This document shows positions 1,893 to 56,979 of a DNA stretch of 64,000 bases, in pieces (position 1 is the stretch's first letter; every line of letters begins with the position of its first letter). The DNA is from an uncultured Cytophagia bacterium. GTDB lineage: Bacteria > Zhuqueibacterota > Zhuqueibacteria > Thermofontimicrobiales > Thermofontimicrobiaceae. A program made the translations under genes and the position numbers. The notes below the pieces were generated by a model that worked only from the letters and a program-made list of their open reading frames with translations, searched no databases and was not told the origin of the DNA. The DNA lies in the NCBI GenBank assembly GCA_964647995.1, contig CAZYNP010000028.1, positions 1,151-65,150 of the forward strand. The letters are read 5' to 3'.

Positions 1893-2267
1893 ACTAACAA
1901 ATCTGTTGACGCTATTTTTTTCTTATATTAAACTGAACTTATTTCAGTTCAATTATCCAATTATATGAACTCGATTCAATTCACTATGAGGAAAATTGCT
2001 CTCAGGAATTTTACAGGCGCTGGCGGACTGGAATCAATAATGGGAAACGGGAGAGATTTTGTGAGGGTGGAAAAATAGTTTTTCTATGTGCAAAACTGGA
2101 TGATCCCAAAATCAAGCAAAGGGAAATAAATAGCTTGCTCGCCGCCATGGATGAGTTCGATGTAACCGAAGGTCTGATCTTAACCCTGGATGAATCAGGA
2201 TCGGAAAAGATCGGCGACAAAAGGATTCGCTGGCAGTCGATCTGGCAATGGCTATTGGAATAGCTAA
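1893..2267 (+). repeat. Direct repeat copy A, about 375 bp and about 95% identical to 3704..4086. It contains a frame-shifted remnant of an AAA+ ATPase (DUF4143-type) C-terminus.
   Basis: By-eye alignment of 1893-2267 with 3704-4086 shows a shared TTGAC...T-rich leader followed by sequence encoding ...KIVFLCATLDDPKIKQREINSLLAAMDEFDVTEGLILTLDESGSEK.GDKRIRWQ.IW.WLLE. In copy A the reading frame is broken near the start (MRKIALRNFTGAGGLESIMGNGRDFVRVEK*). Confidence 0.8.
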
Positions 2268-2322
2268 TCATCTCGCCAAATATTTGCTTGACAATTTGAG
2301 ATTATTTATGTATTTTACTTTT

Positions 2323-3516
2323 ATGACAAACGAAGAATTAATAAACCTGATCGCCAGCGGCGAGGATAGCAAGACACAATTTAAACTTAAATTTGAGAAC
2401 ATTGATAAATTATCTGCTGAAATCGCTGCCATGGCCAATTCCGAAGGTGGAATAATTGTAGTAGGTGTTGGCGATAATGGCGAGATTGTCGGCGTGGAAG
2501 ACCTTCCTAAATTAAATCAATGGATTTCCAATGCTGCTTCTCAAAAAATTCTGCCACCCATTCAGGTCATTACGGATAATGTGATTTACCAAAATAAACT
2601 GGTAGTTTGTATAAAAGTCCCATTGGGTACCAATAAACCTTATGCGGTGAACCAAACTGACTTTTGGGTGAAAGTTGGTGCCGATAAGCGCCGTGCCACT
2701 CGTGAGGAACTGCAGCGATTGATGCAGGCTGCTGCCATATTGCATGCAGATGAAAAATCTGTCATGGGAACAAGCATCAACGATTTAAACTTAGCGTTAT
2801 TTCAAGATTTTTATTTCGAGGAATATGAGCAAGAATTGCCTGAAAATCCCAATGAGGTAGCAACCATACTATCGAATTTGAAATTATTAAAAGAGGGACA
2901 AGCGACGCTGGCGGGGCTATTATTGTTCGGCAAAAAACCCGAGATAATCCTGCCACAATTTGTAATCAAAGCAGTCTGTTTTGTGGGAGAAGATGAAAGC
3001 GAAAATTCATTTATCGATAAAATTACAATTGGCGATATCCTTTCCTCTCAATTCCTGAACACCATGGCTTTTTTTAAGAGGAATCTGAAATATGTTCAGC
3101 GCAATGATTCGTCATTTAATGTAGCGGGTGAGCTGGAAATCCCCGTACGGGCTTTGGAAGAAGCGGTTACCAATGCCCTGCTCCATCGGGACTATTTGAT
3201 CCAAAGCAGCATCCGCATTTTTATTTTCAGAAATCGTATTGAAATTATAAGCCCAGGTGTACTTCCCAATACTGTGACCATTGAAAACATCAAACAAGGG
3301 ATACAGGTCGCCCGCAATCCAATATTGCTGTCTTTTGCTGCTAAATTAAGCCGACATAGGTATGAGGAATTGGGGCTGAAAATTCCATATAGCGGCATTG
3401 GTACGGGGATCAAACGAATTTTGAAAGAATGCAAAAATGCGGGAATTGCCCCGCCAGAATTCATTGAGGATCGGATCACGGGTCAATTCAAGGTGATTTT
3501 TGCTCGAAAAATATAA
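2323..3516 (+). CDS. ATP-binding protein with a divergent AAA (AlbA_2/Schlafen-like) N-terminal domain and a HATPase_c_4 (RecG C-terminal-like) domain.
   Basis: The N-terminus MTNEELINLIASGEDSKTQFKLKF...MANSEGGIIVVGVGDNGEIVGV is the AlbA_2 hallmark. The C-terminus EEAVTNALLHRDY...ISPGVLPN is HATPase_c_4-like. The start is taken at the ATG at 2323 rather than the upstream in-frame ATG at 2248. Confidence 0.7.
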   Translation: MTNEELINLIASGEDSKTQFKLKFENIDKLSAEIAAMANSEGGIIVVGVGDNGEIVGVEDLPKLNQWISNAASQKILPPIQVITDNVIYQNKLVVCIKVPLGTNKPYAVNQTDFWVKVGADKRRATREELQRLMQAAAILHADEKSVMGTSINDLNLALFQDFYFEEYEQELPENPNEVATILSNLKLLKEGQATLAGLLLFGKKPEIILPQFVIKAVCFVGEDESENSFIDKITIGDILSSQFLNTMAFFKRNLKYVQRNDSSFNVAGELEIPVRALEEAVTNALLHRDYLIQSSIRIFIFRNRIEIISPGVLPNTVTIENIKQGIQVARNPILLSFAAKLSRHRYEELGLKIPYSGIGTGIKRILKECKNAGIAPPEFIEDRITGQFKVIFARKI

Positions 3517-3548: not shown

Positions 3549-3703
3549 AAAGCATAGCCCCCCAAAATCTGCCTGGTAATATTATCGGGCGTTATGCGTT
3601 TATGTATTAGGTTATTCGCCATAAGCTTTGCAGCCGACGCCAGCCTCCCTCTCACGTTCATCTTATTTGACTCCCGATTAAAATTATTGAATGGCTACAA
3701 AAA

Positions 3704-4086
3704 ATAACTGACAAATGTGTTGACCAGAAGTTTTTTTTCTTTTATTAAGCTGAACTGATTCCGATTCAATTATTCATGTGTGTAAACTCGATTCAATTCA
3801 CTATGAGAAAAAATTGCACTCAGGAATTTTACAGGCGCTGGCGGACTGGAATCTATAACGGGAAACAGGAGAGATTTTGTGAGGGTGGAAAAATAGTTTT
3901 TCTATGTGCAACACTGGATGATCCCAAAATCAAGCAAAGGGAAATAAATAGCTTGCTCGCCGCCATGGATGAGTTCGATGTAACCGAAGGTCTGATCTTA
4001 ACCCTGGATGAATCAGGATCGGAAAAGCTCGGCGACAAAAGGATTCGCTGGCAGCCGATCTGGAAATGGCTTTTGGAATAGCTAAT
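3704..4086 (+). repeat. Direct repeat copy B, paired with 1893..2267.
   Basis: See copy A. This copy retains an intact 101-aa ORF (3776..4081) encoding the ATPase C-terminal fragment. Confidence 0.8.
3776..4081 (+). pseudogene. C-terminal fragment of an AAA+ ATPase (DUF4143 family). It is a gene remnant lacking the ATPase core.
   Basis: The 101-aa ORF ends ...GLILTLDESGSEKLGDKRIRWQPIWKWLLE, the typical C-terminal tail of DUF4143 ATPases. Compare the intact member at 60077..61417 (...IPIEVKSG...LKIFLDEHP...). There is no Walker A/B upstream. Confidence 0.55.
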
Positions 4087-20537: not shown

Positions 20538-21995
20538 ATGCGATCAAAATGTCTACTGGCAGTTTTATTGATGAGCTTATTATTCATCAATTCAGTTTTC
20601 TCCCAGACCTGGGATCAGGCCACAGGTATCGGATTCACTGGCAATGGCATCAAATTTCTTGGCGGCGCAGTAGATCGAGCCGCATTGGGACTTGGCGGCG
20701 GGCTATCACTCAAATATGGCGCTTCACCTTATGTCATGTTCGATCTGAATGCCAATTATGGCAGTTTCAAGCCAACGGTTGACGGCTCGTGGTACAAGAA
20801 AGATGCCAGTGCACCTTTCCGTACCTTCCTTCTGCCGGTGTCGTTGGATATTCGCTTTACACCGGTTTCCGATGGTCGTGTGAAGCCCTACTTTACCTTT
20901 GGCGGTGGGCTGTTGCTCTGGGATTTGCGCAACGTGGCCGGCACCGACAAGAGCTTTTTTGGCGATTATGAACTGCGCTGGGGCGATAGTGTTCATAAGG
21001 GAACTCAGCGTGAATTTGTATTCAAAGGTGGCCTGGGCCTGGAACTCTTTTTCACCCATGCGGTGTCGCTGGATCTGCAGGCGGGAATGCAGTCGTTACT
21101 CAACAACGATCCCAAAGACAATGTTGGCTACGGCGATGCCAACAATTACGCCGCCACCGGCCGGGTTGGACTCAACTTCTACCTGGACTATTACAAGGAC
21201 ACCGATAAAGATGGGATCGAGGATAAAAAGGATGCCGATCCCTTGCGCCCAGAAGATGTCGACGGTTTCAAGGACGATGATGGCGCACCCGATGACGACA
21301 ACGACAATGACGGCGTGCCTGATCTAAGCGACAAAGCGCCCAATCTGGCCGAAGACAAAGATGGCTTCCAGGACGATGATGGCGTGCCCGATCCCGATAA
21401 CGACGGCGATGGCATTCTGGATGTTAACGATAAGGCGCCTAATGAAGCCGAAGACATGGATGGCTTCAAGGATGGTGATGGAATGCCCGATCCCGACAAC
21501 GACGGCGATGAGATCCTGGATGTCAACGATAAGTGCCCTGGAACGGATGCGACCGTTGCTAACGGCGAGAATACCAAAGAAACTTTCAATGGCTATCAGG
21601 ATGACGATGGTTGCCCTGATACCAAGCCAGTACCAGTTCAGTTAGAAAAGACAGGCGCAAAACTGGTACTCAAAGGAGTGAATTTTGAAACCGGCAGCGC
21701 AACGCTAACCAAGGAATCCTATGCGATTCTGGATGAAGTAATTGCTGGTTTGCGCGATAACAAAGATGTCAGCATTGAGATCCGTGGTTATACCGACAGT
21801 CAGGGGGCTGCGGCAGCCAATCAGAAATTATCGGAACGTCGCGCCAATACGGTGCTGCAATATCTGGTTACCAATGGCATCGAGCCCACCCGCTTGAAAG
21901 CGGTAGGCCTGGGCGAGAAGGATCCGATTGCATCCAATAACACACCCGAGGGACGCGCGCAAAATCGACGCATCGAGTTTGTGCGCACTAAGTAA
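20538..21995 (+). CDS. OmpA-family outer-membrane protein with an N-terminal beta-barrel, thrombospondin type-3 (TSP3) calcium-binding repeats and a C-terminal OmpA peptidoglycan-binding domain.
   Basis: It has a signal peptide and a good ribosome-binding site (AAGGAG). The Asp-rich D.D.DG..D..D repeats occur five to six times. The C-terminus IEIRGYTDSQG...LSERRANTV...NRRIEF is the OmpA signature. Confidence 0.8.
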   Translation: MRSKCLLAVLLMSLLFINSVFSQTWDQATGIGFTGNGIKFLGGAVDRAALGLGGGLSLKYGASPYVMFDLNANYGSFKPTVDGSWYKKDASAPFRTFLLPVSLDIRFTPVSDGRVKPYFTFGGGLLLWDLRNVAGTDKSFFGDYELRWGDSVHKGTQREFVFKGGLGLELFFTHAVSLDLQAGMQSLLNNDPKDNVGYGDANNYAATGRVGLNFYLDYYKDTDKDGIEDKKDADPLRPEDVDGFKDDDGAPDDDNDNDGVPDLSDKAPNLAEDKDGFQDDDGVPDPDNDGDGILDVNDKAPNEAEDMDGFKDGDGMPDPDNDGDEILDVNDKCPGTDATVANGENTKETFNGYQDDDGCPDTKPVPVQLEKTGAKLVLKGVNFETGSATLTKESYAILDEVIAGLRDNKDVSIEIRGYTDSQGAAAANQKLSERRANTVLQYLVTNGIEPTRLKAVGLGEKDPIASNNTPEGRAQNRRIEFVRTK

Positions 21996-22064: not shown

Positions 22065-22605
22065 TTTCGATCGCTGCATGCCGTATAAATTCTTTATCCG
22101 CCAGCCACTGATCACGTGCCTTGTTAGAGACCATTCATCGAAGATAGCGGCAAGCAAGCAAAAATAGCCTTGATTTTATCATTGAAAAGTGCTAAACTTC
22201 TATTGGCAATTTCAAACTGATCCTTTTTCACCCTGGTCATAAACCGGATTTCTCGTTCAGCAATTTGGACAGCAAAATACAGCAATAAACTAATAGGGTC
22301 AAATCGGTAGCGGATTCGGCTGGTTACTAAAGTTAATAAGTTTTTATGAATTGGTCTCGCATACCAGTTCGATTAACACCTTAGTAACACCTGAAATTCT
22401 CAGATGGAAATGATTGTCAATAGACGCCCAGCGAAACGCACGATAAAACACAGAACGCACTTTCGATTTTTTGACTTTCATGTCATTCTGGGTATTTTGT
22501 GGTCAGAAAGCTTTAATTTTCCATCGACATGGTTCATTTTAGAAATTCAGGTAACATCTAAAAATCCGTAATAGCAGAAACCTTTAAGTTTGGATCCGAT
22601 TTACC

Positions 22606-24264
22606 ATGGTTGGCAGAATCCAACAACGGCGGGGTCTCCTCAGAGCCATTGCTTTCTGGCTAAGTTATATCGTCTTGCTCGCATCGCTACGCAGCGAGCA
22701 CAACCCGCAGCGACGACCCACCGGGGGCCACATAACCACCCTGCCACCGCTTCAGCCAGACATCATCGTTGCGCCAGGCGCTGCACAACCTCCAGCGTTG
22801 CCAGACAGCTTTATGAGTTCCAGCCATCGTTTCAACATCCACTATACCACCTTCGGCTCTGATGCCCCGCCCGCGGAGGATGCCAATCACAATGCAGTCC
22901 CCGATTACATCGAACAGATCGCCGCCGCCTTCGATGAAAGCTATCGCGTGGAAATAGAACAGCTCCATTATCGCGAGCCGCCGTCCTTCCAAAACGGCAC
23001 TATGCCCTACCACATTTATGTTCTGAATCTGGGCAATACCAGCGGCCTAACCATCACCGAACTGAAGGACTCCAGCGCTGCGGAAGAAAAAAATGTCTCC
23101 AGCCACATTCTGTTTGAAAATGACTTTGTCGGGCCCGATTTTCATGTTCAGGGTGACGAAGCCATTCGGACCACGGCCGCCCATGAATTTTTTCATGCTA
23201 TCCAACTGGGTTATGTATTTCGCAAAAGCGATAGTTTCTTTTATGAGTTGACCGCGGTCTGGATGGCCGATCGGGTGTTTGATGAGATCGACAAGCATTT
23301 CTATTATCTGGATTATTTTTTCGCTGCGCCAGAGATTCCACTGACTGGCGTGTCGTTTACCATTCCCAATGTCTTCAAACACATCTATGGCTCATGCATC
23401 TTTGCCTTTTACCTGGCCGAAAATTTTGGCATCGATGCCATCCGCTGGATCTGGGAACAGATGCCCGAACAATCCGCCTTGTTGGCCGTGGATCAGCTAT
23501 GCCGAAAGCAGGGCAGCCGTCTTGAGGCTGAATTGGTAAAATTCGCCACCTGGAATTTTTTCACTGGCTGCCGGGCTCAGCCTGGCTATTCGTATTCCGA
23601 AAGCTCACTCTTGCCCGAAATCCGCACCGAAATGGATACTTTGATCCAATATTATCACCAACAGGAGGGAACAGGCTATTTTCTCACAGCCGCCTATTTT
23701 ATTTTTCAGCCCATGGCTGATGGCGAGTTCCGGGTGGTGCTTACGACCGAGCACAAGTCCCACTGGCGGTTGGGAGTCGCGGTTTACGATGCCCTTCGTC
23801 TGGAAACTTTTATCGCTGCACCTGACGAAGAAGTTCACTTGAAAGACATCACCACCGAGCAAAAGATAGTTATCATTCCCTGCAATGTCGATTATACTCA
23901 CAATCCGACCCTGATTTATTTCAAGGAACAGCCCGAGAGCTACACTTTCTATCTGCAGCGGGAAACCAGGCTGCAGCCCGATCTGGCCCGGCCATTTCAA
24001 ATCGAAAAAATTTATCCCAATCCGTTTTCCATCGGAGTCACCTTTTGGATCAAAAAATTGGATTCGGCACCACTATCGATCCAGATTTTCAATATCAATG
24101 GCGAGCAGGTGGCTTGTCTGGCCGAGGAATTGACCATGACCGATCTGACACAGATTCACTGGCGTCCCTCGATGCAGGCAAGTCGGTTAGCTGCGGGAAT
24201 TTATCTCTGTCGATGCTCCAGCCGGGAATATTCAGAAACGATCAAGTTGATCCTCTATCGCTAA
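22606..24264 (+). CDS. Secreted zinc metalloprotease (HExxH) with a C-terminal T9SS sorting domain.
   Basis: It has the AAHEFFHAIQ zincin motif. The C-terminus KIYPNPFSIGVTFWI...NINGEQV...GIYLCR matches the Por_Secre_tail pattern. Confidence 0.6.
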   Translation: MVGRIQQRRGLLRAIAFWLSYIVLLASLRSEHNPQRRPTGGHITTLPPLQPDIIVAPGAAQPPALPDSFMSSSHRFNIHYTTFGSDAPPAEDANHNAVPDYIEQIAAAFDESYRVEIEQLHYREPPSFQNGTMPYHIYVLNLGNTSGLTITELKDSSAAEEKNVSSHILFENDFVGPDFHVQGDEAIRTTAAHEFFHAIQLGYVFRKSDSFFYELTAVWMADRVFDEIDKHFYYLDYFFAAPEIPLTGVSFTIPNVFKHIYGSCIFAFYLAENFGIDAIRWIWEQMPEQSALLAVDQLCRKQGSRLEAELVKFATWNFFTGCRAQPGYSYSESSLLPEIRTEMDTLIQYYHQQEGTGYFLTAAYFIFQPMADGEFRVVLTTEHKSHWRLGVAVYDALRLETFIAAPDEEVHLKDITTEQKIVIIPCNVDYTHNPTLIYFKEQPESYTFYLQRETRLQPDLARPFQIEKIYPNPFSIGVTFWIKKLDSAPLSIQIFNINGEQVACLAEELTMTDLTQIHWRPSMQASRLAAGIYLCRCSSREYSETIKLILYR

Positions 24265-32708: not shown

Positions 32709-34508
32709 ATGTTTCAAAGTATTCCGCACCTGTTGTTCAACACTATCGAAAAATATCCTGATAAAGATGCACTGCGATTTCGCCGCGGCGGCAAGCTGCG
32801 ACGATTTACCTATCGCGAATTTGGGGAGCTGATCCAAACCCTGACCCATGGACTGGCGGCCAGGGGCTTGCAGCCCGGTGATAAAATTGCGATCCTCTCG
32901 AACAATCGGCCCGAATGGACGATTGCGGACTTTGCCGGCCTTTCCTTGCGCGGGGTGGTAGTTCCTATTTACCAGACATTACCACCCAATCAGATTGCCT
33001 ACATCTTGAACGATTCCGAAGCAAGGGCTATTTTTGTGGAAGATGAACACCAGTATGAAAAAATTGTCCAGATCCGAAAAAAGCTACCTCGGCTTAAATT
33101 TGTGTTCTCATTTCAGGAAATTCCGGATACCAAAGGACTGGTGCAATCATTTGAAGAACTGCTGGCAGATGGCAAAGAACATCAACGCCAGCAACCGAAC
33201 TTCTACTACGAATCGATCAATCACATCGAACCCAGAAAAATTTGCAGCATGGTGTACACTTCGGGAACCACGGGCGATCCCAAAGGCGTGATGCTGCATC
33301 ACCATGGATTCATCACCGATATTATAAATGCCGACGCCGTTTTGAATATTGTCGCGGCAGATGTCTTCCTGTCATTTCTACCCCTGAGCCATCTCTACGA
33401 ACGCCTGGCGGGCCACTGGACACCGATGTACAAAGGCGCAACCATTCACTATTCCCAGAGCATCGACACGGTCATCGACGATATCGCCGAAGCGAAACCC
33501 AGCGTAATCGTAAGTGTTCCCCGGCTGTATGAAAAAATCGCCGCCCGAGTACTGGAACAGGTAGAAACAGGGTCGGAACTCAAGAAAAAGATCTTCTATT
33601 GGGCACTGGCCGTGGGCCGCAAATATCACGATCAGCGGATCGATGGCAAAATCTCCTTCAAAACGAGACAGCAGCATAAGCTGGCTAATAAGCTGGTATT
33701 CCAAAAAATCAAAGATAAAATGGGCGGGCGACTCAGATTTCCTATTGCCGGGGGAGCGCCGCTGGCCGTGGAAACGCTAAAATTTTTCGAGGCGCTGGAC
33801 ATGCAGATCATCGAGGGCTATGGCATGACCGAAACACATCTGATTATCACGCTGACGCCAGCCGGCAAATCCCGCTATGGTTCCTGCGGCAAGCCCATCA
33901 ATGAGGTTCAAGTAAAAATTGCCAGTGACGGCGAGGTCTTGATCAAAGGGCCGACAGTTATGGCGGGTTATTATAAAAAACCGGAATTGACCAAAGAGGC
34001 GATTGACAACGATGGCTGGCTCCACACCGGCGACATCGGCTATCTGGATAATGAAAACTATTTATATTTGACCGATCGCAAGAAGAACATCCTGATCACT
34101 TCTGGCGGGAAAAATATCGCTTCCGCTCCCATTGAAAATGCTTTGAAGGCCAGCAAGTACATTGATGAAGTCTGCCTGATCGGGAACAATCGCAAGTTCG
34201 TTAGTGCGCTGATTGTGCCAGACTTCGATAATTTGAAAAAATGGGCACAGCAGCACGACCTTGATGTTACCGATAATAACGCGTTGGTGGAGCAGGCTGC
34301 GGTTAAAGATTTCGTATGGCAGGAGGTGGAGCGCCTCCAGACCGATTTCGCCCGTTTTGAGCAGGTAAAAAAAATCGCCCTGCTGCCGACGCCATTTACC
34401 ATTGACAAGGGCGAATTGACACCCAGTCTGAAGGTAAAACGGAATGTGGTCGAGCAAAATTATAAAGACCTGATCGATAAAATTTATCAAAGCGAACATG
34501 TGGTGTGA
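32709..34508 (+). CDS. Long-chain fatty-acid--CoA ligase (AMP-binding enzyme, FadD-like).
   Basis: It has the MVYTSGTTGDPKGV AMP-binding motif and the GYGMTE motif. A GGAGGGAGAG ribosome-binding site precedes the ATG at 32709. Confidence 0.75.
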   Translation: MFQSIPHLLFNTIEKYPDKDALRFRRGGKLRRFTYREFGELIQTLTHGLAARGLQPGDKIAILSNNRPEWTIADFAGLSLRGVVVPIYQTLPPNQIAYILNDSEARAIFVEDEHQYEKIVQIRKKLPRLKFVFSFQEIPDTKGLVQSFEELLADGKEHQRQQPNFYYESINHIEPRKICSMVYTSGTTGDPKGVMLHHHGFITDIINADAVLNIVAADVFLSFLPLSHLYERLAGHWTPMYKGATIHYSQSIDTVIDDIAEAKPSVIVSVPRLYEKIAARVLEQVETGSELKKKIFYWALAVGRKYHDQRIDGKISFKTRQQHKLANKLVFQKIKDKMGGRLRFPIAGGAPLAVETLKFFEALDMQIIEGYGMTETHLIITLTPAGKSRYGSCGKPINEVQVKIASDGEVLIKGPTVMAGYYKKPELTKEAIDNDGWLHTGDIGYLDNENYLYLTDRKKNILITSGGKNIASAPIENALKASKYIDEVCLIGNNRKFVSALIVPDFDNLKKWAQQHDLDVTDNNALVEQAAVKDFVWQEVERLQTDFARFEQVKKIALLPTPFTIDKGELTPSLKVKRNVVEQNYKDLIDKIYQSEHVV

Positions 34509-34659
34509 TTTTAGATTTTACCTGAATTCACTGCTGTCCAAGATAATTTGAATATCTAAATTTGCTCATTGTAAAATCGGCCACTAAAAGTAAATTCATT
34601 CGTTTTTCAAAATGAGGTTCTATTTCCACCTCGCCGCCGGTTGGCGGATGATATTTTGC

Positions 34660-34706
34660 TGTCCCAAATGCTCGATGAGAAATCGTGTTTGGGACAAGAG
34701 TGTTTT
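34660..34706 (+). terminator. Candidate terminator hairpin downstream of the fadD-like gene.
   Basis: A 9-bp stem tgtcccaaa/tttgggaca with a 18-nt loop is followed by gtgttttt. Confidence 0.3.
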
Positions 34707-34710
34707 TCAA

Positions 34711-35290
34711 CAAGGTAATAAGGTTTCTACTACCACGGATTTTGATATGTTACTAAGGTTTTCATCAGCCTGAGACACAAGACCAATTCAGAAGACCCTA
34801 TTAACCTTAGTGCCTGATTTCAAAAATCCGTTTAGGGCTTGAAAGCGTCTGACTATTAAAAATAACATCCCGCTTAGCAGGATCAATTCCTGCTGGCGTT
34901 GACTATTTCTACTTGGCGGGATGGAGTTAGCGTGGTAACCCTAAAATGCTCCCGCATGAAATTATGGAATGATGTACCAAATTCAACAGGGTCCATAGGA
35001 TTTGATCCATTCCCTGGCTGAAAAAAAATGATTAACCTTAGTAACCAGGTCGGCCCAGGACCGCCCGAACCTTATTACCTTATCGGGAATATTCCTTAAA
35101 AGAAAAATAAGCGAATAAGGTTTAGCATCGGTGGATCACCTGATGCTCCTAAGGTTAATAAGGTCTAATGGATTTGGTCTATTAAACCGAGCTTTGGTGA
35201 TTGAAATAAAATCGTGTCAAACGAATTTAATTTTTTCTTACTTTGAGTATTTCAGCAGAATGGGAGTAAGCTGTAAACCTTTTAATAACC
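34711..35290. repeat. Dispersed motif family ((T)AAGGT(T)AATAAGGT / TTACTAAGGTTAA) with about eight copies in both orientations in a 970-bp non-coding region.
   Basis: Copies are at 34711, 34748, 34798(rc), 35030(rc), 35067(rc), 35112, 35148 and 35275(rc). Two (34711 and 35067rc) are the identical 14-mer AAGGTAATAAGGTT. Confidence 0.6.
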
Positions 35291-35477
35291 CATACCGAGT
35301 GCGCTCAGCTTACATCATCAGGCCGGACATAAGTGGCACTTGATGCTTCGCTGGCGTCCTGATTGACGGTTGGATTGCGAAGGGAGGTCTTGTGGTTATT
35401 GGCCTGTTCTGCCGCCAACGATGAAACGGGTGACTGGAGTCCGGTGTGGGCTCTATCAAAATTGAGGAGAAACGTTT

Positions 35478-38456
35478 ATGCCCATTTTGGCGACTGATCT
35501 TCAAGCGAACAGCATCATCCATGGTTTTCAGATCAAAAAAATCAGTCCCCTGTCCGATCTCAACATGATCGCTATCGAACTGGTCCATCTGAAAACCGGC
35601 GCCAGGCTGTTGCATCTTTACACGGATGATGCCGAGAATCTGTTTTCCATCAGCTTTCCAACCCCGCCGCTGGACAATACCGGTATTCCGCATATCCTGG
35701 AGCATTCCGTTCTGGCCGGCTCTCGCAAATTTCCAGTGCGAGAACCCTTTTTCGAGATGGTGAAAATGAGCATGGCCACGTTCATCAATGCCATGACCGG
35801 CTGGGATTGCACATACTACCCCGTCGCCAGCAACGTGAAACAGGATCTGTTCAATCTGGCGGAGGTCTATTTCGATGCGGTCTTCAATCCGCTATTGACC
35901 GAAATAACTTTCAAGCGAGAAGCCCACCACCTGGTCCCGTTGCAGCCAAACAAGCCGCTGGGAAAATTGGCCATCAATGGCATTGTTTACAACGAAATGA
36001 AAGGTGTTTTTTCTGATCCAGAGTCAATTTTGTATCGGACAATGGAGCGTGGTCTATTTCCAGATACGGTTTACGGCAGGGAATCGGGCGGCGATCCTGA
36101 TTTTATCCCCGAATTGACCTACGAACAGTTGCAGCAGTTTCATCGGACCTATTACCATCCCAGCAATAGCTATTTCTTCTTTTACGGCGACATTCCAACG
36201 CGGGATTATCTTCAATTTTTGAAAGATCGGCTGGATGCATTCGAGCGACGACCAGTGCAGCCGGACCTTCGGCCACAGCCTCGCTGGCAACAGCCCCGCA
36301 AAATGATGGAATCCTATCCCATCGGCGAAGCTGAACCCAGCCAGGAAAAAACCTATCTGGCGATCAACTGGTTGGTCGGACGCGGCACCAATCCGCTGGA
36401 CGTGGCCAGCCTCTATATTTTGAGCTTGATCCTGCTGGGCAATGAGGGCTCGCCGCTCAAAAAAGCCATCATTGATTCCCATCTGGGCCAGGACCTTATT
36501 TTCTCCGGCTTTCATTCGGTCGGATTGGAGACGACGTTTCGAGTGGCCCTGAAGGGATCGGAAGCCGATCGCTACGATGCTTTCGAAAAATTGGTGCTGG
36601 ACACGCTGGCGCAAATTGCCGCCAGGACGATTGAACCGGAACGGATCGCGGCTGCCTTTCAGCAAGCCAGCTACCACTACCTGGAGATATTGCCAGAATA
36701 TCCTCTGGACCTGATGGAACGCGTCCTGGAAGGGTGGATCTACGGGATCGAGCCGCTGACCTTTGTGCGAATGAAAGAACATCTGGCCGAGTGCCGGCTG
36801 CGAGCACAGTCGAATCCCCAATTTTTCAATCAACTGATTCGCGATCGACTGCTGGACAATTGCCACCGCCTATCGCTGATTCTATCTCCAGATTCGCAGT
36901 TACAATCCCGGCGTGATGCTCAACTGGCTCAAAAGCTGCAGCAGTTGCGCGAGAGATTTTCTAAGGATGAGATGCATAGAATTGCCGAAGCCGCGGCTGA
37001 AGTCGAGCGGATTTCGGGCGAACCCAATTCACCTGAGGCGCTGGCCACATTGCCCCAGCTCAAGCTGAGCGATCTGCCCCGTCGACCCGCGCACATTCCA
37101 ACCAGCCTGGAGAAACTGGCCGGTGGGGTCGATTTTCTGCACAACGATGTCTTTTCCAACGGGGTCACTTACCTTTATCTGCATTTTGATCTGAAGGGAT
37201 TGCCGCGGCACCTCTGGCCATTTCTACCCCGATATGCGGAGGCCATTCGCAAAATGGGCGCGATGGGACAAAATTATGAGCAGATCGCCAGTCGCATGGC
37301 CGCCAGCACCGGCGGCATCCACTGTTGGCCTTCGTTCACCAAACACGCGGTTGACCCTGAACAGTCGATCTGGGGACTAAAATTCAAGCTCAAAACCCTG
37401 GATGAGCAAGTTGAGCCGTCGCTGCAGTTGTTGCACGATTTGTTGTTCGGCGTGGATCCACGGGACGGTCATCGCTTGCAGGATGTGCTGCGCCAGGCGG
37501 TAACCAGATACCGCACCAGCCTGGTCCATGACGGCGCCGATACGGCTGGTCGCCACGCGGCACGAGGGTTTACGCCCGAAGGCTACCTTTCCGAACTGGT
37601 GAATGGGCTGCCCCAGTTGGAGCTGACCGAAGCGATGAACCGCGAGTTTGAAACCAGGCAACATGAGTTGATGCGCCACATCGAGGAAATTCGCAACTTC
37701 ATTCTCGACCCGGGCCGGCTGACCGTGAGTTTCACCGGTTCCGATCGCAGCGCCATTGCCGTACGACGTCATATTTCAGAGTGGATCCAGCGGATGCCCC
37801 AGGGAGTCATCAAAGAGTCGCCAATCGGCTTTATGCCCTATGAACAACCGCCCGTCGAGGGACTTGCAGGTCCCATGCAGGTGGCCTTTTGTGTGCAGAT
37901 TTTGCCAGCTCCGCATGTGTCACAACCAGAAATGGCCGCCTTAAAATTAGGGACTCGAATCATCTCGGTGGAATATATTCTCAATGAAATCCGTTTCAAA
38001 GGCAATGCTTACGGCGCCTGGTGCAACTACAATGGTCTGGATCAAGAAATCGAATTTTGCTCCTATCGCGATCCGCATATTGTCCGTACCCTGAAAGTCT
38101 TCGACGCGGTCCTGAAATATGTGCGCCAGGCCGACTGGACCTCCGGCGATATCGATCGTGCGATTATCAGCACTGCCAAGCGCTTTTTGGAACCCATTCG
38201 CCCCAAAGAGGCGACTGAGAACGCGCTGCATCGCCATCTGACCGGCCAGACCGCGGCCATCCGGGAACAACACTATGCCCAAATTCTTGCGGCCACCCCA
38301 AACGATGTAAAACGCACCACGCTGGAAGTGCTGGCGGAAAGCCTCAAGCGACGAGCAATCTGCGTTGTTTCCAGTCGCCAGAAGCTGGAGGAAGCCAATC
38401 GTCACCTCCCACGGCGGCCGTTGATCATCGAAGACATTTTGAAATCCGGCGCTTAG
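35478..38456 (+). CDS. M16-family zinc metallopeptidase (PreP/pitrilysin-like, M16C).
   Basis: It has the inverted zinc motif HILEHSVLAGS (HxxEH). The 992-aa length is typical of PreP-type enzymes. A GAGGAG ribosome-binding site is present. Confidence 0.75.
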   Translation: MPILATDLQANSIIHGFQIKKISPLSDLNMIAIELVHLKTGARLLHLYTDDAENLFSISFPTPPLDNTGIPHILEHSVLAGSRKFPVREPFFEMVKMSMATFINAMTGWDCTYYPVASNVKQDLFNLAEVYFDAVFNPLLTEITFKREAHHLVPLQPNKPLGKLAINGIVYNEMKGVFSDPESILYRTMERGLFPDTVYGRESGGDPDFIPELTYEQLQQFHRTYYHPSNSYFFFYGDIPTRDYLQFLKDRLDAFERRPVQPDLRPQPRWQQPRKMMESYPIGEAEPSQEKTYLAINWLVGRGTNPLDVASLYILSLILLGNEGSPLKKAIIDSHLGQDLIFSGFHSVGLETTFRVALKGSEADRYDAFEKLVLDTLAQIAARTIEPERIAAAFQQASYHYLEILPEYPLDLMERVLEGWIYGIEPLTFVRMKEHLAECRLRAQSNPQFFNQLIRDRLLDNCHRLSLILSPDSQLQSRRDAQLAQKLQQLRERFSKDEMHRIAEAAAEVERISGEPNSPEALATLPQLKLSDLPRRPAHIPTSLEKLAGGVDFLHNDVFSNGVTYLYLHFDLKGLPRHLWPFLPRYAEAIRKMGAMGQNYEQIASRMAASTGGIHCWPSFTKHAVDPEQSIWGLKFKLKTLDEQVEPSLQLLHDLLFGVDPRDGHRLQDVLRQAVTRYRTSLVHDGADTAGRHAARGFTPEGYLSELVNGLPQLELTEAMNREFETRQHELMRHIEEIRNFILDPGRLTVSFTGSDRSAIAVRRHISEWIQRMPQGVIKESPIGFMPYEQPPVEGLAGPMQVAFCVQILPAPHVSQPEMAALKLGTRIISVEYILNEIRFKGNAYGAWCNYNGLDQEIEFCSYRDPHIVRTLKVFDAVLKYVRQADWTSGDIDRAIISTAKRFLEPIRPKEATENALHRHLTGQTAAIREQHYAQILAATPNDVKRTTLEVLAESLKRRAICVVSSRQKLEEANRHLPRRPLIIEDILKSGA

Positions 38457-45162: not shown

Positions 45163-45532
45163 GAGTCGGCCGAATCGTTCATCGCTGTCATGAGACGTAT
45201 GTTGCGCCTGGTTACTTCTGCTGTTAGCAATTTGGTTAATGCTAACTGCAATTCTAAAATGGACATGATTATCAATAATTCTCCCATGGAACGCACGCAA
45301 AAGCATTGACAGCATTTCTTATTTTTCGGATTCCGTGTCATTCCGGGTATTCAGTATGCCAAAGGTTATCATCTCCATCGTCACGGTTCGTTTTAGAAAT
45401 TTGGGTGCTATTCAAATCTGACAAAATTTCCTGAGCGAAGGAATAAAATCTGTTGCCTATTCCGCCGCAGTCTATAACAGCAGCTTACCTTGAGCAATAC
45501 GTCAATTGCCCAAATTTACTGCATTGCCCACC

Positions 45533-51488: not shown

Positions 51489-52007
51489 CCATTCCTCCCT
51501 CAGTTAATATTGCTTAACGCCACCTGGCATAAGTTAAACGATCCAGGTTCGCACTTGCTCCCACCGAACTGAACTCCCATCGAAAAATTTTGTTTTAAAG
51601 TCCCCATACCTTGCCAGGTATTTCATCACAACTCAATTTCTCACCCACATATTTTCACCAGGTGCCATGCCATATCCCCCAAACTCCTTGCGCTATCACT
51701 TCCGCTTGCCTCGCTCGAAGTCGGAGTTTTGGAGCAATGGAGTGCTGCGGATTTCTAACTGTCATTCATTACTCCATCACTCCAATGCTTCATCACTACA
51801 TCATTTCAAAACCATGCATCTAAATTTTCAAATCAAAATGACAGGGTCGACTCCAGATAGCAACAGGCAGCCGACCCTGTCTGTGCGGAGGGTAGTTCTT
51901 CTATTTGCAACTCGATTTCGAGCCAGCACTATCCGAGTAAATCAGCTTTGCCCGCTCATTTCAGGAATTATGCCAATTGCTCCAATTTCTCGATTGGCCA
52001 ATTAGCG

Positions 52008-52138
52008 AAATTCGTTTCGTTAGTGCAATTAGCGGTCTCATCGAGTCTACCACCGATGTCACCACTAACCCGAGTCACACACTCCGCCTCATCAGAAAAT
52101 TAGCGGAATTCGTTTAATTGGCGTCATTAGCGGTCCAC
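52008..52138. repeat. Two copies (A1 at 52008-52049, A2 at 52096-52138) of an AATTAGCG-rich short repeat family; orientation is inverted relative to the B copies at 55184-55470.
   Basis: A1 is ccaattagcgaaattcgtttcgttagtgcaattagcggtctc. A2 is aaaattagcggaattcgtttaattggcgtcattagcggtccac. Both share AATTAGCGRAATTCG and ATTAGCGGTC with the B elements. Confidence 0.7.
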
Positions 52139-53064: not shown

Positions 53065-53159
53065 AACGATTACTAAACCTGAAAAGTTTAGTAATCGTTG
53101 TCCCCTGTTATTTGGAGGTACAATTACCAAACTTGAAAAGTTTGGTAATTGTACCTCCC
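53065..53159. other. Two adjacent perfect hairpins (14-bp and 19-bp stems) with near-identical 7-nt loops (cTGAAAA / tTGAAAA), lying 3' of the RNA ligase gene.
   Basis: The first is aacgattactaaac ctgaaaa gtttagtaatcgtt. The second is ggaggtacaattaccaaac ttgaaaa gtttggtaattgtacctcc. On the minus strand the first is followed by a T-rich run, so it may act as a terminator. Confidence 0.6.
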
Positions 53160-53208
53160 CACTTGTTTCTCCCCAATTACCCAGTTACCCAATTACCTAA
53201 TCACCCAA

Positions 53209-54219
53209 CTACTCTTCATATTTCAACAAAAACTCAGGATTCACGACCTTGAAGCTCAGCCTTCCCAATTCAGGATCTTGCGCCTCGACAACGGGTCGGA
53301 TGACAATGCCTTCCCTGGGAATATCGGGATTGAGCACGCTTTTGTCATTGGACAGCGCCACCAGACCATCCACATCGTGCGTACCCAGGATGTAATCGTC
53401 GCGAATAATGGGCACGGTCTCGAATCCTGCCTCTCTGGCCAGGGCCACAAATTCCTCATAATTCAAATAGACAAAGCGATCGATGTCGAAGATGCTATAG
53501 ATCAGCACCTGGTGGCCAGGCAGTTTATATTTATTGCCCTGAATTTTCGGTCCCAGTATCTCCCCCTGAAAGGCGATGTTGCGATGGAGCTTTCGCAGTT
53601 TGCCCTCGATGTCGTGCAAGCGAGCGACCATCCAGTGGATATTGGTCTCGGTCTCCAGCAACTCCAGATTGCGAGAGCAAACGCCAAACTCACTATCCCG
53701 AATGTAATAGGTGGCGCTGGTGCCATCCACCTTTTCGGTAATATAGCAACGCTGGCCCACGTTTTCAGGTCGGGTGAGCACATCGGGCACGGATTGGATG
53801 CGCATCTCGTCGGTTTTGGGGATGAACCCAGGGAAACTGCCTTTTACCTGGCCGCTGGTCATCACGGCTGGCGGCGGCTCATATTTTTTAATTCCCAGCA
53901 GCTCGGTGACATCCATTCCCTCGCTGATCGGAACGTTTTCCAGCTCTTTGATCTGATGAATAGGAAAAGCAATGCCCTGCGAAATCTGTCCCCGCAGCTT
54001 CACGGTCTTGATCCTGAACTTCCGTGGCCGCAAAAATTCATATTCGGGCTTTTCGGGCAACATGCTGTCGATCTCACAATAGACGCAATAGTCACCCACT
54101 TTGAAATCTCCCTTCTTGACCACCAGTTGCCAGCCCAGCACGGTGGCCTTTTCAATCTTGTCCGCCTCGGGAATTGGCTCCAGACTTTTGATCCGCTGGA
54201 TCGTAGCTAATTTTCTCAT
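53209..54219 (-). CDS. ATP-dependent RNA ligase of the Rnl5 family (DraRnl/NgrRnl-type; TIGR02306-like).
   Basis: It has the N-terminal OB-like domain MRKLATIQRI...ADKIEKATVLGWQLVVKKGDFKVGDYCVYCEIDS and the nucleotidyltransferase motif I ITEKVDGTS with Lys at about residue 163. At 336 aa both the size and the lysine position match DraRnl (342 aa, Lys165) as I recall it. Confidence 0.7.
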   Translation of the reverse strand: MRKLATIQRIKSLEPIPEADKIEKATVLGWQLVVKKGDFKVGDYCVYCEIDSMLPEKPEYEFLRPRKFRIKTVKLRGQISQGIAFPIHQIKELENVPISEGMDVTELLGIKKYEPPPAVMTSGQVKGSFPGFIPKTDEMRIQSVPDVLTRPENVGQRCYITEKVDGTSATYYIRDSEFGVCSRNLELLETETNIHWMVARLHDIEGKLRKLHRNIAFQGEILGPKIQGNKYKLPGHQVLIYSIFDIDRFVYLNYEEFVALAREAGFETVPIIRDDYILGTHDVDGLVALSNDKSVLNPDIPREGIVIRPVVEAQDPELGRLSFKVVNPEFLLKYEE

Positions 54220-54254
54220 TTTTAGACTCCTTTTTCGTCTTGAGTGCCTTTTTT

Positions 54255-54598
54255 AAATATTTTCTCTCCCAGAAACGATATCCCACCGAAATGAATTTTT
54301 AGAATTTTTATTATCAGGGAAGCGGCTTCCTATTACCCTCTATTACCGAATTGCCCAATTATTTTAAAATATTTTTTCCCACAGAAATGAAATCCCACCG
54401 AAATGGATTTTTAGAATTTTTATTATCAGGGAAGTGGCTTCCTATTACCCTATTACCGAATTGCCCAATTATCTTAAAGTATTTTTTCCCACAGAAATTA
54501 AATCCCACCGAAATGAATTTTTAGAATTTTTATTATCAGGGAACGGGCTTCCTATTAACTTATTACCCTATTACCCAATTACCTAATTGCCCAATCCC
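54255..54598. repeat. Tandem array of three units of about 114 bp, each containing TTTTCCCACAGAAATGAAATCCCACCGAAATG, TTTTTAGAATTTTTATTATCAGGGAAGYGGCTTCC and CCTATTACCGAATTGCCCAATTA.
   Basis: The units are at 54255-54370, 54371-54480 and 54481-54598 and are more than 90% identical. The array lies between the trx-like stop (54599) and the RNA ligase start (54219). Confidence 0.8.
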
Positions 54599-55228
54599 CT
54601 AACGACCCGATTTCCACTTGATATTACACCCAATACTTGGTTTTTGATCCTGGCTCACGGGCTTGCCAGCGATGATGGCCTCCAGCGCCGCCCGAAGGTC
54701 TTCGCCCGTTACAGGAATATCATTACTGGGCCGAGAGTCATCCATCTGGCCCCGATAGACCAATTTCAAATCTTTATCGAAAACATAAAAATCAGGCGTA
54801 CAGGCGGCCAGATAGGCACGGGCGACCTCCTGGGATTCGTCGTAAAGATAAGGGAACGGATAACCGAACTGCTTCGCCACTTTTTTCATCTCTGCTGGAG
54901 AATCTTCGGGGTAGCCCTGCACATCGTTGGAGCTAATGGCAATGAATGAAATTCCTTTCGACAGGTAATCCTTTGCCAATTGCACCAACCCTGTTCGAAC
55001 GTGCTTAACAAACGGGCAATGATTGCAAATAAACATCACTACTGTCGCCGTATCCGATTTTAGCTCTTGCAACGATAGTACTTTTCCAGAAATGGTATCG
55101 GGCAATTTGAAATCAGGCGCCGATGTTCCCAACGGCATCATGTTCGATGGCGTGACTGCCATTTGTTCCTCCGCTTTATTTGTGACCGCTAATTTCGCGA
55201 ACGAGACGAATTTCGCTAATTGGCGCAA
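54599..55228 (-). CDS. Thioredoxin-fold protein (AhpC/TSA-redoxin/TlpA-like) with a CxxC motif (CNHCPF).
   Basis: APDFKL...VVMFICNHCPFV is a redoxin-type motif. The start may be the internal Met (MAVTPSNMMPLG). Confidence 0.6.
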   Translation of the reverse strand: MRQLAKFVSFAKLAVTNKAEEQMAVTPSNMMPLGTSAPDFKLPDTISGKVLSLQELKSDTATVVMFICNHCPFVKHVRTGLVQLAKDYLSKGISFIAISSNDVQGYPEDSPAEMKKVAKQFGYPFPYLYDESQEVARAYLAACTPDFYVFDKDLKLVYRGQMDDSRPSNDIPVTGEDLRAALEAIIAGKPVSQDQKPSIGCNIKWKSGR

Positions 55229-55470
55229 TTAGATTAATTCGCGAAATTAGCGGTCAACTGTATTCGTCCAAAGCAATTGCTGTCGACAGAGCAAAAGATT
55301 TCTGACCGCTAATTTCGCTAATTGATAAGAATTTCGCCAATTGATGATTGGCCTGCATTTCGATTCGTAAATCTATGAAGCCATGCATTTTTGTTTGTAC
55401 CCCAATCACTTCAAACTCAAAAATTAATAATTCGCGCAATTAGATTAATTCGCGAAATTAGCGGTCAACC
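55184..55470. repeat. MITE-like palindromic elements with 18-bp terminal inverted repeats GACCGCTAATTTCGCGAA / TTCGCGAAATTAGCGGTC. B1 (55184-55258) is a 75-bp complete element. B2 (55304-55351) and B3 (55429-55470) may be the two ends of a 167-bp element.
   Basis: The terminal inverted repeats are perfect. The right half of B1 and B3 are identical over 37 nt. The family is shared with the A copies at 52008-52138. Confidence 0.7.
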
Positions 55471-55476
55471 CAGAAT

Positions 55477-55902
55477 TCAATAGCTTGTGGAAAATTTCTT
55501 CTCAAAATCTTTGAGCGTAATTTCATCCAATAAATTGACCAATTTCGATTGAATGTCCTCCATGGATTTTCGGATCAGGCAATTGCGCTCCCGCTCGCAG
55601 ACCGTTTCCTCGTCAGCATCCAGGCAATCGGCGATAGCAATTGGGCCGTCAATAGCCGTGATCACCGAGGAAATATTGATGCGATCGATGGGCTGGGCTA
55701 AGTAATAGCCCCCTTTTACACCTTGCACAGAGATCACCATTCCACTTTTCACCAGGCTCTGCAGAATTTTTCCCATCAGCTCCAGCGAAATGTTATATTT
55801 ATCCGATAGCTCCCGTGCAGTTGTCAACTCATCAGGCGATTTCTTTGCCATGTGCAGGAGGGCGATCAAAGCGTATTCCACTTTTTTGCTGAATTTCATC
55901 AT
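55477..55902 (-). CDS. Rrf2-family transcriptional regulator (IscR/NsrR-like) with three candidate Fe-S ligand cysteines.
   Basis: The N-terminal HTH is KKVEYALIALLHMAK...LTTARELS and a GG(Y)YLA-like region is present. Cysteines lie in ...ADCLDADEETVCERERNCLI. Confidence 0.7.
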   Translation of the reverse strand: MMKFSKKVEYALIALLHMAKKSPDELTTARELSDKYNISLELMGKILQSLVKSGMVISVQGVKGGYYLAQPIDRINISSVITAIDGPIAIADCLDADEETVCERERNCLIRKSMEDIQSKLVNLLDEITLKDFEKKFSTSY

Positions 55903-55910
55903 CAGAAGTT

Positions 55911-55935
55911 ATACCAGACTGAATTGGTCTTACTT
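55911..55935. promoter_or_regulatory. Operator-like motif ATACCAGACTGAATTGGTCTTACTT, 9-33 bp upstream of the Rrf2 start codon; paired with 53008..53032.
   Basis: It is similar to the sod-upstream palindrome, and its position is consistent with an autoregulatory operator. Confidence 0.4.
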
Positions 55936-55952
55936 TAGCTCAAAATAAAAAT

Positions 55953-56200
55953 CATTTTTTTCCAATGATTTCACCCACTGAAACGCCTGGCGAAAAAATT
56001 TGTTCCAAAATAGGACTATGGAGGTCGGATTTAAAATTGGAATTCTATTTTTAAATTTCGTTAGCGAAAAGGAATGATTTTTCTCCCACAGAAATGGAAT
56101 CCCACAGAAAAGAAAACTTAGGTTTTATTGATAGATGCTCTGTTTTCTGATTTTAAAAAAAGACTTTCTCTCCCACCGAAATGGAATCCCACAAAAATAG
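55953..56200. repeat. Three dispersed copies of the TTTYTCCCACMGAAATGGAATCCCAC motif (also present in the 54255-54598 array) in the Rrf2/sigma divergent intergenic region.
   Basis: Copies lie at 55953-55985, 56075-56110 and 56163-56200. Confidence 0.6.
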
Positions 56201-56388
56201 AGTTTGATCCTTAATTCTGGGCGCTTTTATTTTGCCAAATGGTGGATCGCCTCCTGGCGGTTTTGAAGGCTAAAAACATGTTCATTGAGCCAGGAATGAA
56301 TTATCTCGATCTTGATGTAAGGCCCTCTTTTTTATTTCAAAGAAAAAAAATATCAAATAATTTTCATTTGAATTTGTTATATTAGTGT

Positions 56389-56979
56389 ATGGAGCTGGAG
56401 AACATGAAGGCGACGGAAGCTTTGGTCGAACGCTATCGCCAGGGCGATCATGCTGCTTTTGACCAGTTAATACAAGAGCATGGCAGGCCGCTATACAATT
56501 TCATACTTTCTATGACCAAAAGCAAGTCGCTGGCCGACGATGTCTATCAAGAAACCTGGAGTCGGGTCCTTCACCACCTCGATGACTATCGAGAGCAGGG
56601 GCAATTTAAATGCTGGCTGTTCCAGATCGCCAACCATCAATGCCTGAATCACCTGCGATTGCTCAGACGAGTCTTTGTGCCATTGACCGAGATAGTCAAT
56701 GTCGAGAGCGAAGCGAACCTAATCATCAGCGGTTCCAATCCTGATCCCGGGCCTGATGAAAAATTGGAGCGCAACGAACGCCTCAAATGGGTTTGTGCGT
56801 GCGCTCAACAATTGCCCATCAAGCAGCGTCAGGTTTTTCTCTTGAAAATGAACAGCGATCTGACATTCAAAGAGATTTCAATGATTTTGAACCGACCGTT
56901 GAATACTGTGCTCACGCAGATGCGAACGGCACTTTTGACCATGAGGAAAAAACTAAAGGCCATTTATGATGAAGTGTAA
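56389..56979 (+). CDS. ECF-type RNA polymerase sigma-70 family factor.
   Basis: Region 2 (DVYQETWSRV...FKCWLFQIANHQCLNHLR) and a region 4 HTH (FKEISMILNRPLNTV) are present. Confidence 0.75.
   Translation: MELENMKATEALVERYRQGDHAAFDQLIQEHGRPLYNFILSMTKSKSLADDVYQETWSRVLHHLDDYREQGQFKCWLFQIANHQCLNHLRLLRRVFVPLTEIVNVESEANLIISGSNPDPGPDEKLERNERLKWVCACAQQLPIKQRQVFLLKMNSDLTFKEISMILNRPLNTVLTQMRTALLTMRKKLKAIYDEV

Follow-up and report, generated by a model that had tools for sequence, protein, structure and literature searches.

The DNA considered here, which we call the window, is the whole stretch of 64,000 nucleotides (nt) that was analyzed from contig CAZYNP010000028.1, and its nearest genomes are metagenome-assembled genomes (MAGs) of candidate division KSB1. 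KSB1, or Zhuqueibacterota, has been placed in the FCB (Fibrobacteres–Chlorobi–Bacteroidetes) superphylum (PMC11683472, PMC9012183). Our subject is one long intergenic spacer of this window (34509-35477, 969 bp), the repeat unit that fills it, which we call U, and a smaller element, E2, that is found with U. The spacer is flanked by an AMP-binding (fadD-like) gene (32709-34508, plus strand) and a gene for an M16C/PreP-type peptidase (35478-38456, plus strand), with a GAGGAG ribosome-binding site just 5' of the M16 ATG at 35478. Its neighbors are AFOR, AMP-binding, M16, and MgtC genes, and its GC content is 0.43, compared with ~0.50. The M16 protein shares 85% identity with its counterpart in JAPDQM01, and for the flanking genes the nucleotide identity is ~81%.

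The spacer is crowded with a short motif, TAAGGTTAAT. Of the nine copies of the heptamer TAAGGTT in the window, seven lie within 438 bp of the spacer (34719-35156); using a shuffle-derived rate, the Poisson probability of at least seven copies in such a length is ~1e-14, or ~1e-12 when corrected for the number of windows. An earlier, sequence-only reading of this DNA had reported this cluster, listing eight motif instances in both orientations, an identical 14-mer present twice, and several small hairpins, and on all of these points it was right. All eight instances are present (that at ~35276-35289 is the most degenerate), the 14-mer AAGGTAATAAGGTT is found at 34712-34725 (+) and 35068-35081 (-), the two orientations form inverted pairs, and the small hairpins are there. 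In addition, the spacer contains perfect inverted repeats of 12 and 14 nt, which are 273 and 342 nt apart.

The motif corresponds to the four arm boxes of U, the layout of which was drawn from four-way and seven-way alignments of its copies. At full length U measures ~370 nt, and its core is an imperfect hairpin, or palindrome, of ~140 nt with two boxes on each arm (m1 and m2 direct, m3 and m4 inverted; consensus (GG)TTACTAAGGTTAATAAGGT). The order is an X hairpin module (smaller than the main hairpin), m1 (AATAAGGTT), 34 bp, m2 (GGTTACTAAGGTTAATAAGGT), ~50 bp, m3, 34 bp, and m4, after which come a second X module, a short GC hairpin, and a tail that ends in half-X. Box m3 is the inverse of m2 and m4 is the inverse of m1; m1 and m4, m2 and m3, and the stretches between them are mutually complementary, and the inverted-repeat pairs I3, I7, I13, and I17 coincide exactly with these box pairings. 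Such a hairpin, with two boxes per arm, hints that U may have a specific DNA-binding partner.

Three units are carried by the spacer (Table 1). Every one of the listed motif instances is an m box of U_a, U_b, or U_c, and the long-range inverted repeats are pairings between the arms of neighboring units. Together, U_b and U_c make up block R (34906-35289), the right end of which was set at 35289-35308 by two independent comparisons. When searched by nhmmer with a profile of the hairpin domain, U_a scored E=8e-37, being itself among the four sequences from which the profile was built, whereas U_b (35083-35022) and U_c scored E=7e-3 and E=1.4e-3, respectively.

Table 1. Positions in the window of the three U units and their parts, the sequences that border them, the U copy at the protease locus (locus B), and the two copies of E2
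Feature	Position	Strand	Basis
Post-stop flank of the fadD-like gene (TTTTAGATTTTACCTGAATTC)	34509-34529	+	Alignment of window, L037, L045, L046, and L047
U_a, full-length unit	34530-34900	-	80% identity over 256 nt to L042 1817-2072
U_a, X1-like hairpin	34866-34900	-	Alignments
U_a, degenerate m1	~34835-34857	-	Alignments
U_a, m2	34793-34812	-	Alignments
U_a, loop		-	Alignments
U_a, m3	34749-34760	-	Alignments
U_a, m4	34712-34725	-	Alignments
U_a, X2 hairpin	34652-34710	-	Alignments
U_a, GC hairpin	34631-34647	-	Alignments
U_a, tail/X3	34530-34625	-	Alignments
U_b, diverged unit, head-to-head with U_a	34906-35085	+	Part of block R; manual alignment
U_b, X1'-like region		+	
U_b, degenerate m2	~34965-34990	+	
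U_b, loop		+	
U_b, m3	35031-35045	+	
U_b, m4	35068-35081	+	
U_c, unit in tandem with U_b	35095-35289	+	Paralogue L056, orthologue L044, ORF-product proxies P0204-P0207
U_c, m1	35107-35122	+	
U_c, small hairpin	35126-35147	+	
U_c, m2	35146-35165	+	
U_c, shortened loop		+	
U_c, degenerate m3/m4		+	
U_c, last box	~35276-35289	+	
Ancestral M16 leader/promoter region	35290-35477	+	85-93% identity to L046, L047, L045, and L044
Locus B, U 5' part (X1, m1, m2, loop, m3)	22226-22389	+	76% identity over 164 nt to L042; alignment minus E2
Locus B, U 3' part (spacer, m4)	22552-22600	+	Hairpin profile E=5e-7
E2 copy 1, in locus-B U between m3 and m4	22390-22551	+	E2 profile E=2e-48; copy itself in profile
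E2 copy 2	45245-45405	+	E2 profile E=1e-42; copy itself in profile

U is not confined to this spacer but recurs at unlinked loci as a module of 140-390 nt, with 76-90% identity and with unrelated neighbors. The first such locus is on L042 (Ga0067045_1052561), an unrelated metagenome contig with different neighboring genes, where a non-coding element of ~375 nt stands 5' of a fatty acyl-AMP ligase (FAAL)-like gene; window positions 34556-34811 (minus strand) match it at 80% identity over 256 nt, and positions 22226-22389 match L042 1717-1880 at 76% identity over 164 nt. The ~2.4 kb of DNA 5' of the FAAL-like gene (L042 1-2396), which contains no Pfam-matching open reading frame (ORF) and holds the U copy, may be another long repeat-rich spacer. 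Block R has a paralogue on L056, a contig of the sister-strain MAG GCA_053496195.1 that begins inside the element: the two are 89.9% identical over 387 nt (L056 1-386), and here the copy lies 5' of a GH127 glycosidase gene.

Within the window, the related motif copies that the sequence-only reading had placed at 22318-22390, 5' of a type IX secretion system (T9SS) protease gene, are real and form part of a homologous element of ~220 nt. We refer to the fadD-M16 spacer as locus A and to the spacer 5' of this Por_Secre_tail/DUF6055 protease gene (ATG at 22606) as locus B; the U copy of locus B spans 22226-22600. Across the ~0.5 Mb of sequence compared, which came mostly from other phyla, the hairpin-domain profile matched only the spacer units, locus B, L042, and their orthologues. 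A pattern scan of a metagenome collection, of which the source Joint Genome Institute (JGI) sample was evidently not a part, returned five matches, one of them a true relative (L042) and four of them AT-rich chance matches. In two scans of viral contigs with the U and E2 patterns, one gave no match and the other gave a single chance match.

Conserved DNA of this kind can look like a gene, and it is worthwhile to consider whether the spacer codes for one or more small proteins. Two ORFs come into question: one of 61 amino acids (aa) on the minus strand, which was called as a gene by JGI, and one of 70 aa on the plus strand, lying over U_c, which served as the probe in an exhaustive HMMER search of the protein database and returned four "homologues" with 61-78% identity. 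However, these four "proteins" share only the N-terminal ~53 aa, that is, the part over the repeat, after which their C-termini are unrelated and their lengths differ. One of them (P0204) maps to L056 of GCA_053496195.1, two (P0205 and P0206) lie on further NCBI contigs, and the last (P0207) comes from the 106-kb JGI contig that also carries the twin of the window, yet is not encoded in the window; P0205-P0207 imply three more copies of U, via spurious ORF products only. As for the 61-aa ORF, a protein-word search returned only its own JGI call, and the L042 copy is frameshifted relative to it. Substitutions relative to the L056 paralogue are spread over the three codon positions as 8/6/6, and the ORF part is no better conserved than the rest (12.8% divergence compared with 8.3% in the non-ORF part). 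The statement of the sequence-only reading that there is no convincing ORF is therefore upheld by the absence of both a Pfam match and a codon-position bias. Its proviso that another genetic code might reveal a gene came to nothing, as no long frame opens under any single stop-codon reassignment. We regard small proteins as a most improbable explanation of the spacer, and the database proteins over U are in all likelihood spurious ORFs on a conserved DNA element.

Comparison between strains is the second source of evidence. Strains with 94-97% nucleotide identity to the window were retrieved via 90% protein clusters, and L007 served as the sister species for the fadD-M16 spacer. The flanking genes are 94-99% identical across the strains. 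The spacer itself measures 969 bp in the window and 971 bp in the near-identical strain L037 (JGI 3300045276, contig Ga0495054_000173; spacer identity 99.3%), 551 bp in L046, 555 bp in L047, 234 bp in L045, and 213 bp in L007. The U hairpin domains are absent from this spacer outside the window, L037, and L044. Common to all strains are the last ~190 nt, which form the M16 leader, and some ~20-35 nt after the fadD-like stop; the flank at 34509-34529 occurs in every strain of the species and lies outside the variable array, and the leader, which is without motif boxes, can still be recognized over its last ~90 nt in L007. What lies between them varies. In L045, all that remains of the array is an X module, an m4-like box, and part of the U_a tail. 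In L046 and L047 an X module has been kept, and E2 stands where the window has the U hairpins. In L046 (2690-2812, with an equivalent in L047) the ~120 nt between E2 and the M16 leader match nothing among the sequences compared. At locus B, the spacer between the OmpA-family gene and the T9SS protease gene measures 610 bp in the window; in the sister species its length is 198 bp, and it contains neither U nor E2. Strains L050 and L051 show differences 5' of E2.

Repeats also leave their mark on the sequences themselves. The window and L037 show five differences within 40 nt, two of which, a C-to-G change and the insertion of CC, agree with the L056 paralogue; this clustering suggests gene conversion among copies or, possibly, assembly cross-talk between repeats. 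Moreover, eight independent short-read contigs (L001, L038, L044, L048, L049, L050, L051, and L056) terminate at or inside repeat blocks, as multi-copy repeats would be expected to produce.

These comparisons bear directly on any regulatory role. The sequence-only reading had proposed a regulator-binding array, but the boxes are embedded in a module of 140-390 nt, and neither the sister species nor strains at ~94% average nucleotide identity (ANI) have them 5' of their M16 and T9SS orthologues. As a locus-specific array the proposal is not supported; because a protein that recognizes the boxes (a transposase, recombinase, or host factor) is still plausible, it survives in a changed form.

One such form is a mobile cis-regulatory cassette, in which the TAAGGTTAAT boxes would be operators and genes for secreted or degradative enzymes would acquire a promoter or operator from U. 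At four of four readable loci (M16, T9SS protease, GH127, and FAAL-like) U does stand upstream of the next gene and is co-oriented with it, and the boxes are the best-conserved part of U. At the protease locus the U copy ends 17 nt short of the ATG, and nothing remains of the ancestral upstream region that the sister species still has; transcription must therefore begin within U or E2, or else read through the upstream terminator. However, this is a sample of only four loci, U_a is directed into the fadD-like gene at its 3' end, and the M16 gene has its own conserved leader (35290-35477) without boxes. In close strains these genes are expressed without U, and the non-box part of U is equally conserved (80-90% over hundreds of nt), which goes beyond what selection on operators alone would maintain. 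We therefore consider a regulatory cassette unlikely.

A related possibility is that the units are invertible promoter cassettes (invertons), as in Bacteroides, with the boxes as recombinase sites that switch the downstream gene. Membership of the FCB superphylum (PMC11683472), the perfect 12- and 14-nt inverted repeats, a homologous cassette family 5' of secreted-enzyme genes, and contig breaks at inverted repeats would all be in keeping with this. Yet no flipped orientation was seen in the comparisons that would reveal one (window with L037, block R with L056, and locus B with L052), there is no invertase gene nearby, only ~40 nt lie between the inner pair of inverted repeats, and the pattern of presence/absence, nesting, and truncation is better explained by transposition and recombination. 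Invertons thus strike us as very unlikely, and cassette and inverton taken together still amount to an unlikely explanation. The same ideas can be drawn into a single proposition, namely that U is a mobile promoter/operator unit or recombinase-flipped switch, the paired TAAGGTTAAT boxes of which would be bound by one trans-acting protein, and that it has been repeatedly recruited upstream of T9SS metalloprotease, M16 peptidase, and GH127 genes into a common, strain-variable KSB1 regulon; we consider this unlikely.

Element E2 provides the third source of evidence. It is a non-coding element of ~162 bp (161-166 bp) with terminal inverted repeats of 25-30 nt, as seen in an alignment of six sequences, and its ends read CCTGAAATTCTAAAATGGAC... 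and ...TTCATTTTAGAAATTCAGG. The copy at locus B is flanked by a target duplication (TAACA at 22385-22389 and 22552-22556), and excising E2 together with one TAACA restores a U sequence that is contiguous with L042 and U_a. The second copy, which lies in a convergent spacer between a GNAT gene and an F420-oxidoreductase-like gene, has the duplication TGCTA (45240-45244 and 45406-45410), and L051 shows TAATA/TAATA. The third locus is the fadD-M16 spacer of L046 and L047, at which no target duplication was seen. Insertion is polymorphic: locus A is occupied only in L046 and L047, and the sister species is without E2 at locus B. None of the window genes examined proved to encode a transposase. By its size and terminal inverted repeats, its target duplications, and its dispersed, polymorphic copies, E2 is a classical miniature inverted-repeat transposable element (MITE). 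It demonstrates the activity of small non-autonomous transposons in this lineage and their nesting within these spacers.

The insertion also matters for the proposal, likewise made by the sequence-only reading, of a large structured non-coding RNA (ncRNA), be it a family of structured ncRNA genes represented by U or a single ncRNA of ~600 nt from the spacer. Long non-coding sequence is conserved at several loci, it folds better than shuffled controls (z = -4.2 for the plus strand and -7.2 for the minus strand), and the plus strand has terminator-like hairpins with T-runs (34631-34647 and in X). But both strands fold strongly because the DNA is palindromic, the element is absent in close strains, and in every strain examined at the protease locus E2 has been inserted into the hairpin. 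The covariance-model search that had been suggested as a check found no match in the window at the gathering score of any Rfam 15 family, and at E<=10 there was only noise; the best sub-threshold match, to nhaA-II, reached 24 bits against a cutoff of 70 bits. A scan for tRNA and tmRNA genes found none. With RNAalifold on four hairpin copies, none of the 23 predicted pairs was compensatory (changed on both sides) and several were broken, although four sequences give this test low power. An ncRNA is, in our view, quite unlikely.

There is still less to recommend the third proposal, a degenerate iteron-type element, meaning an iteron-type replication origin or the remnant of a plasmid or phage. 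The repeated short boxes and the slightly AT-rich, non-coding setting recall an origin, but the boxes form inverted pairs (34/50/34 bp) and not regularly phased direct repeats, the flanks are housekeeping genes with no rep, dnaA, or partition gene, and the spacer has no DnaA box (there are six in the window, with 5.3 expected). Furthermore, BLAST of U and the spacer against plasmid and phage sequences gave no match, and the array is dispensable in close strains. We give this idea next to no chance. Readings as attC, dif/Xer, a CsrA sponge, or a retron-like element were rejected because they do not fit the sequence and spacing of the boxes or the strand symmetry, and because no linked genes are present. 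Separately, the cumulative GC skew of the window reaches its minimum at ~55000-56400, where gene orientation flips from mostly minus (45.5-55.9 kb) to plus (from 56.4 kb) and where the genes encode an extracytoplasmic function (ECF) sigma factor and its anti-sigma factor; as to an origin at this minimum (55-56 kb), no dnaA and no DnaA-box cluster were seen there.

We think it probable that the spacer is a mosaic of dispersed non-coding palindromic repeats, accumulated in a hypervariable intergenic hot spot of an uncultured KSB1 bacterium and comparable to bacterial interspersed mosaic elements (BIMEs), to REPINs (doublets of repetitive extragenic palindromic, or REP, sequences that form hairpins), or to MITEs. 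The observed basis for this is dispersal, dispensability, nesting, and the lack of constraint at the coding or RNA level. Seen in this way, the motif is not a dedicated regulatory array, an origin, or a large RNA gene, but selfish or mobile repeat DNA. U would spread or duplicate at the DNA level, perhaps moved by a trans-acting transposase or recombinase that recognizes the paired arm boxes or, alternatively, by recombination or gene conversion between copies, in the manner of BIME/REPIN/MITE-type elements. Effects on neighboring genes, such as fadD-like transcripts ending in hairpins or the protease gene gaining a promoter, would then be by-products of insertion.

Several observations weigh against a mosaic of mobile repeats and should be kept in mind. 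No target-site duplication and no sharp termini were recognized for U; the left termini and the duplication were not found because every paralogue contig compared starts inside the element. Only about eight U loci are documented, with no others among the sequences compared, and neither the window nor the flanks examined showed a transposase, REP-associated tyrosine transposase (RAYT), or recombinase. Remnants of U persist in strains at ~94% ANI (the tail, X, and the final ~20 nt of block R), and some of the differences must therefore be deletions or replacements and not simple empty sites. Lastly, the upstream, co-oriented placement of U at all four readable loci is not what purely selfish insertion predicts, which is a weak counterargument.

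If our interpretation holds, long spacers with repeated motifs in uncultured phyla can be stacks of small mobile repeats, which break short-read assemblies, mimic regulatory arrays or ncRNAs, and draw spurious gene calls (at least five database "proteins" in the present case). On the practical side, U and E2 could serve as strain markers. Should the co-orientation with downstream hydrolase genes be true genome-wide, it would amount to a repeat-mediated rewiring of expression.

Other repeats are present in the window. Direct repeats of 384 nt, 91.7% identical (1889-2268 and 3703-4086), lie around a gene (2248-3516, plus strand) for a protein with Schlafen AlbA_2 and HATPase_c_4 domains, which looks like the footprint of a duplication or insertion around this gene. 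A non-coding tandem repeat of three 110-nt units with 90% matches (54253-54581) sits between an unannotated ORF of 353 aa (53149-54210) and an AhpC/TSA gene (54599-55228, minus strand). Between the latter and an Rrf2-family regulator gene there is a palindromic repeated stretch (55180-55470), a 49-nt copy of which occurs near a superoxide dismutase gene (51993-52040); it may be an operator shared among oxidative-stress genes or another repeat family. The OmpA-family gene 5' of locus B (20538-21995) contains an Asp-rich coding tandem repeat of 99 nt in 2.7 copies (21267-21533). Finally, the T9SS-sorted DUF6055 putative metalloprotease (22606-24264) has only 63% identity to its orthologue in the sister species (L053 3001-4662), compared with 85% for the M16 peptidase on the same contigs, and the secreted protein is thus evolving much faster.

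REP/BIME, REPIN, BOX, enterobacterial repetitive intergenic consensus (ERIC), and Correia elements, as well as MITEs, are well-known kinds of element, and U can be set beside each of them. Like U, the BIME/REP sequences of enterobacteria and the REPINs of Pseudomonas are extragenic, non-coding palindromes clustered in alternating or tandem orientation, interleaved with other short conserved modules into a mosaic, and arranged in strain-variable arrays; as U might, they can serve as transcript 3'-end hairpins. U differs in having a 140-nt hairpin within a unit of ~370 nt, compared with REPs of 20-40 nt, in the lack of an evident GTAG-type head and of evident sequence similarity, and in a copy number that is probably much lower. 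Since U is outside the size range of REP/BIME/REPIN and no Y1 transposase (RAYT) was found among the window genes examined, the likeness is architectural only.

The BOX elements of Streptococcus pneumoniae, ERIC, and the Correia elements (also called Neisseria miniature insertion sequences, NEMIS) of Neisseria are modular or palindromic intergenic repeats of 100-400 nt. Like U, they are predicted to be strongly structured, vary between strains, and are found near gene starts and ends, and they sometimes supply promoters or processing sites. However, U comes from an unrelated phylum and has an unrelated sequence, its arms carry two boxes each, it has an additional X hairpin module, and the TA target duplications of Correia elements were not seen. 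The arm boxes themselves recall the TnsB sites of Tn7 and the L1-3/R1-3 sites of Mu, where at least two direct boxes of ~15-20 bp make up each arm and the arms are inverted, although the arms of U are ~50 bp apart whereas the ends of Tn7 and Mu flank kilobases of cargo. To our knowledge, no cognate transposase of the U boxes has been described.

E2 belongs with the classical MITEs, sharing with these non-autonomous derivatives of insertion sequences with DDE transposases the lack of an ORF, the terminal inverted repeats and target duplications, and the dispersed, polymorphic copies, one of them a nested insertion; for U, no strict terminal inverted repeats and no target duplications were recognized. 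Both U and E2 appear to be undescribed families for KSB1/Zhuqueibacterota, while the kind of element that they represent is well known.

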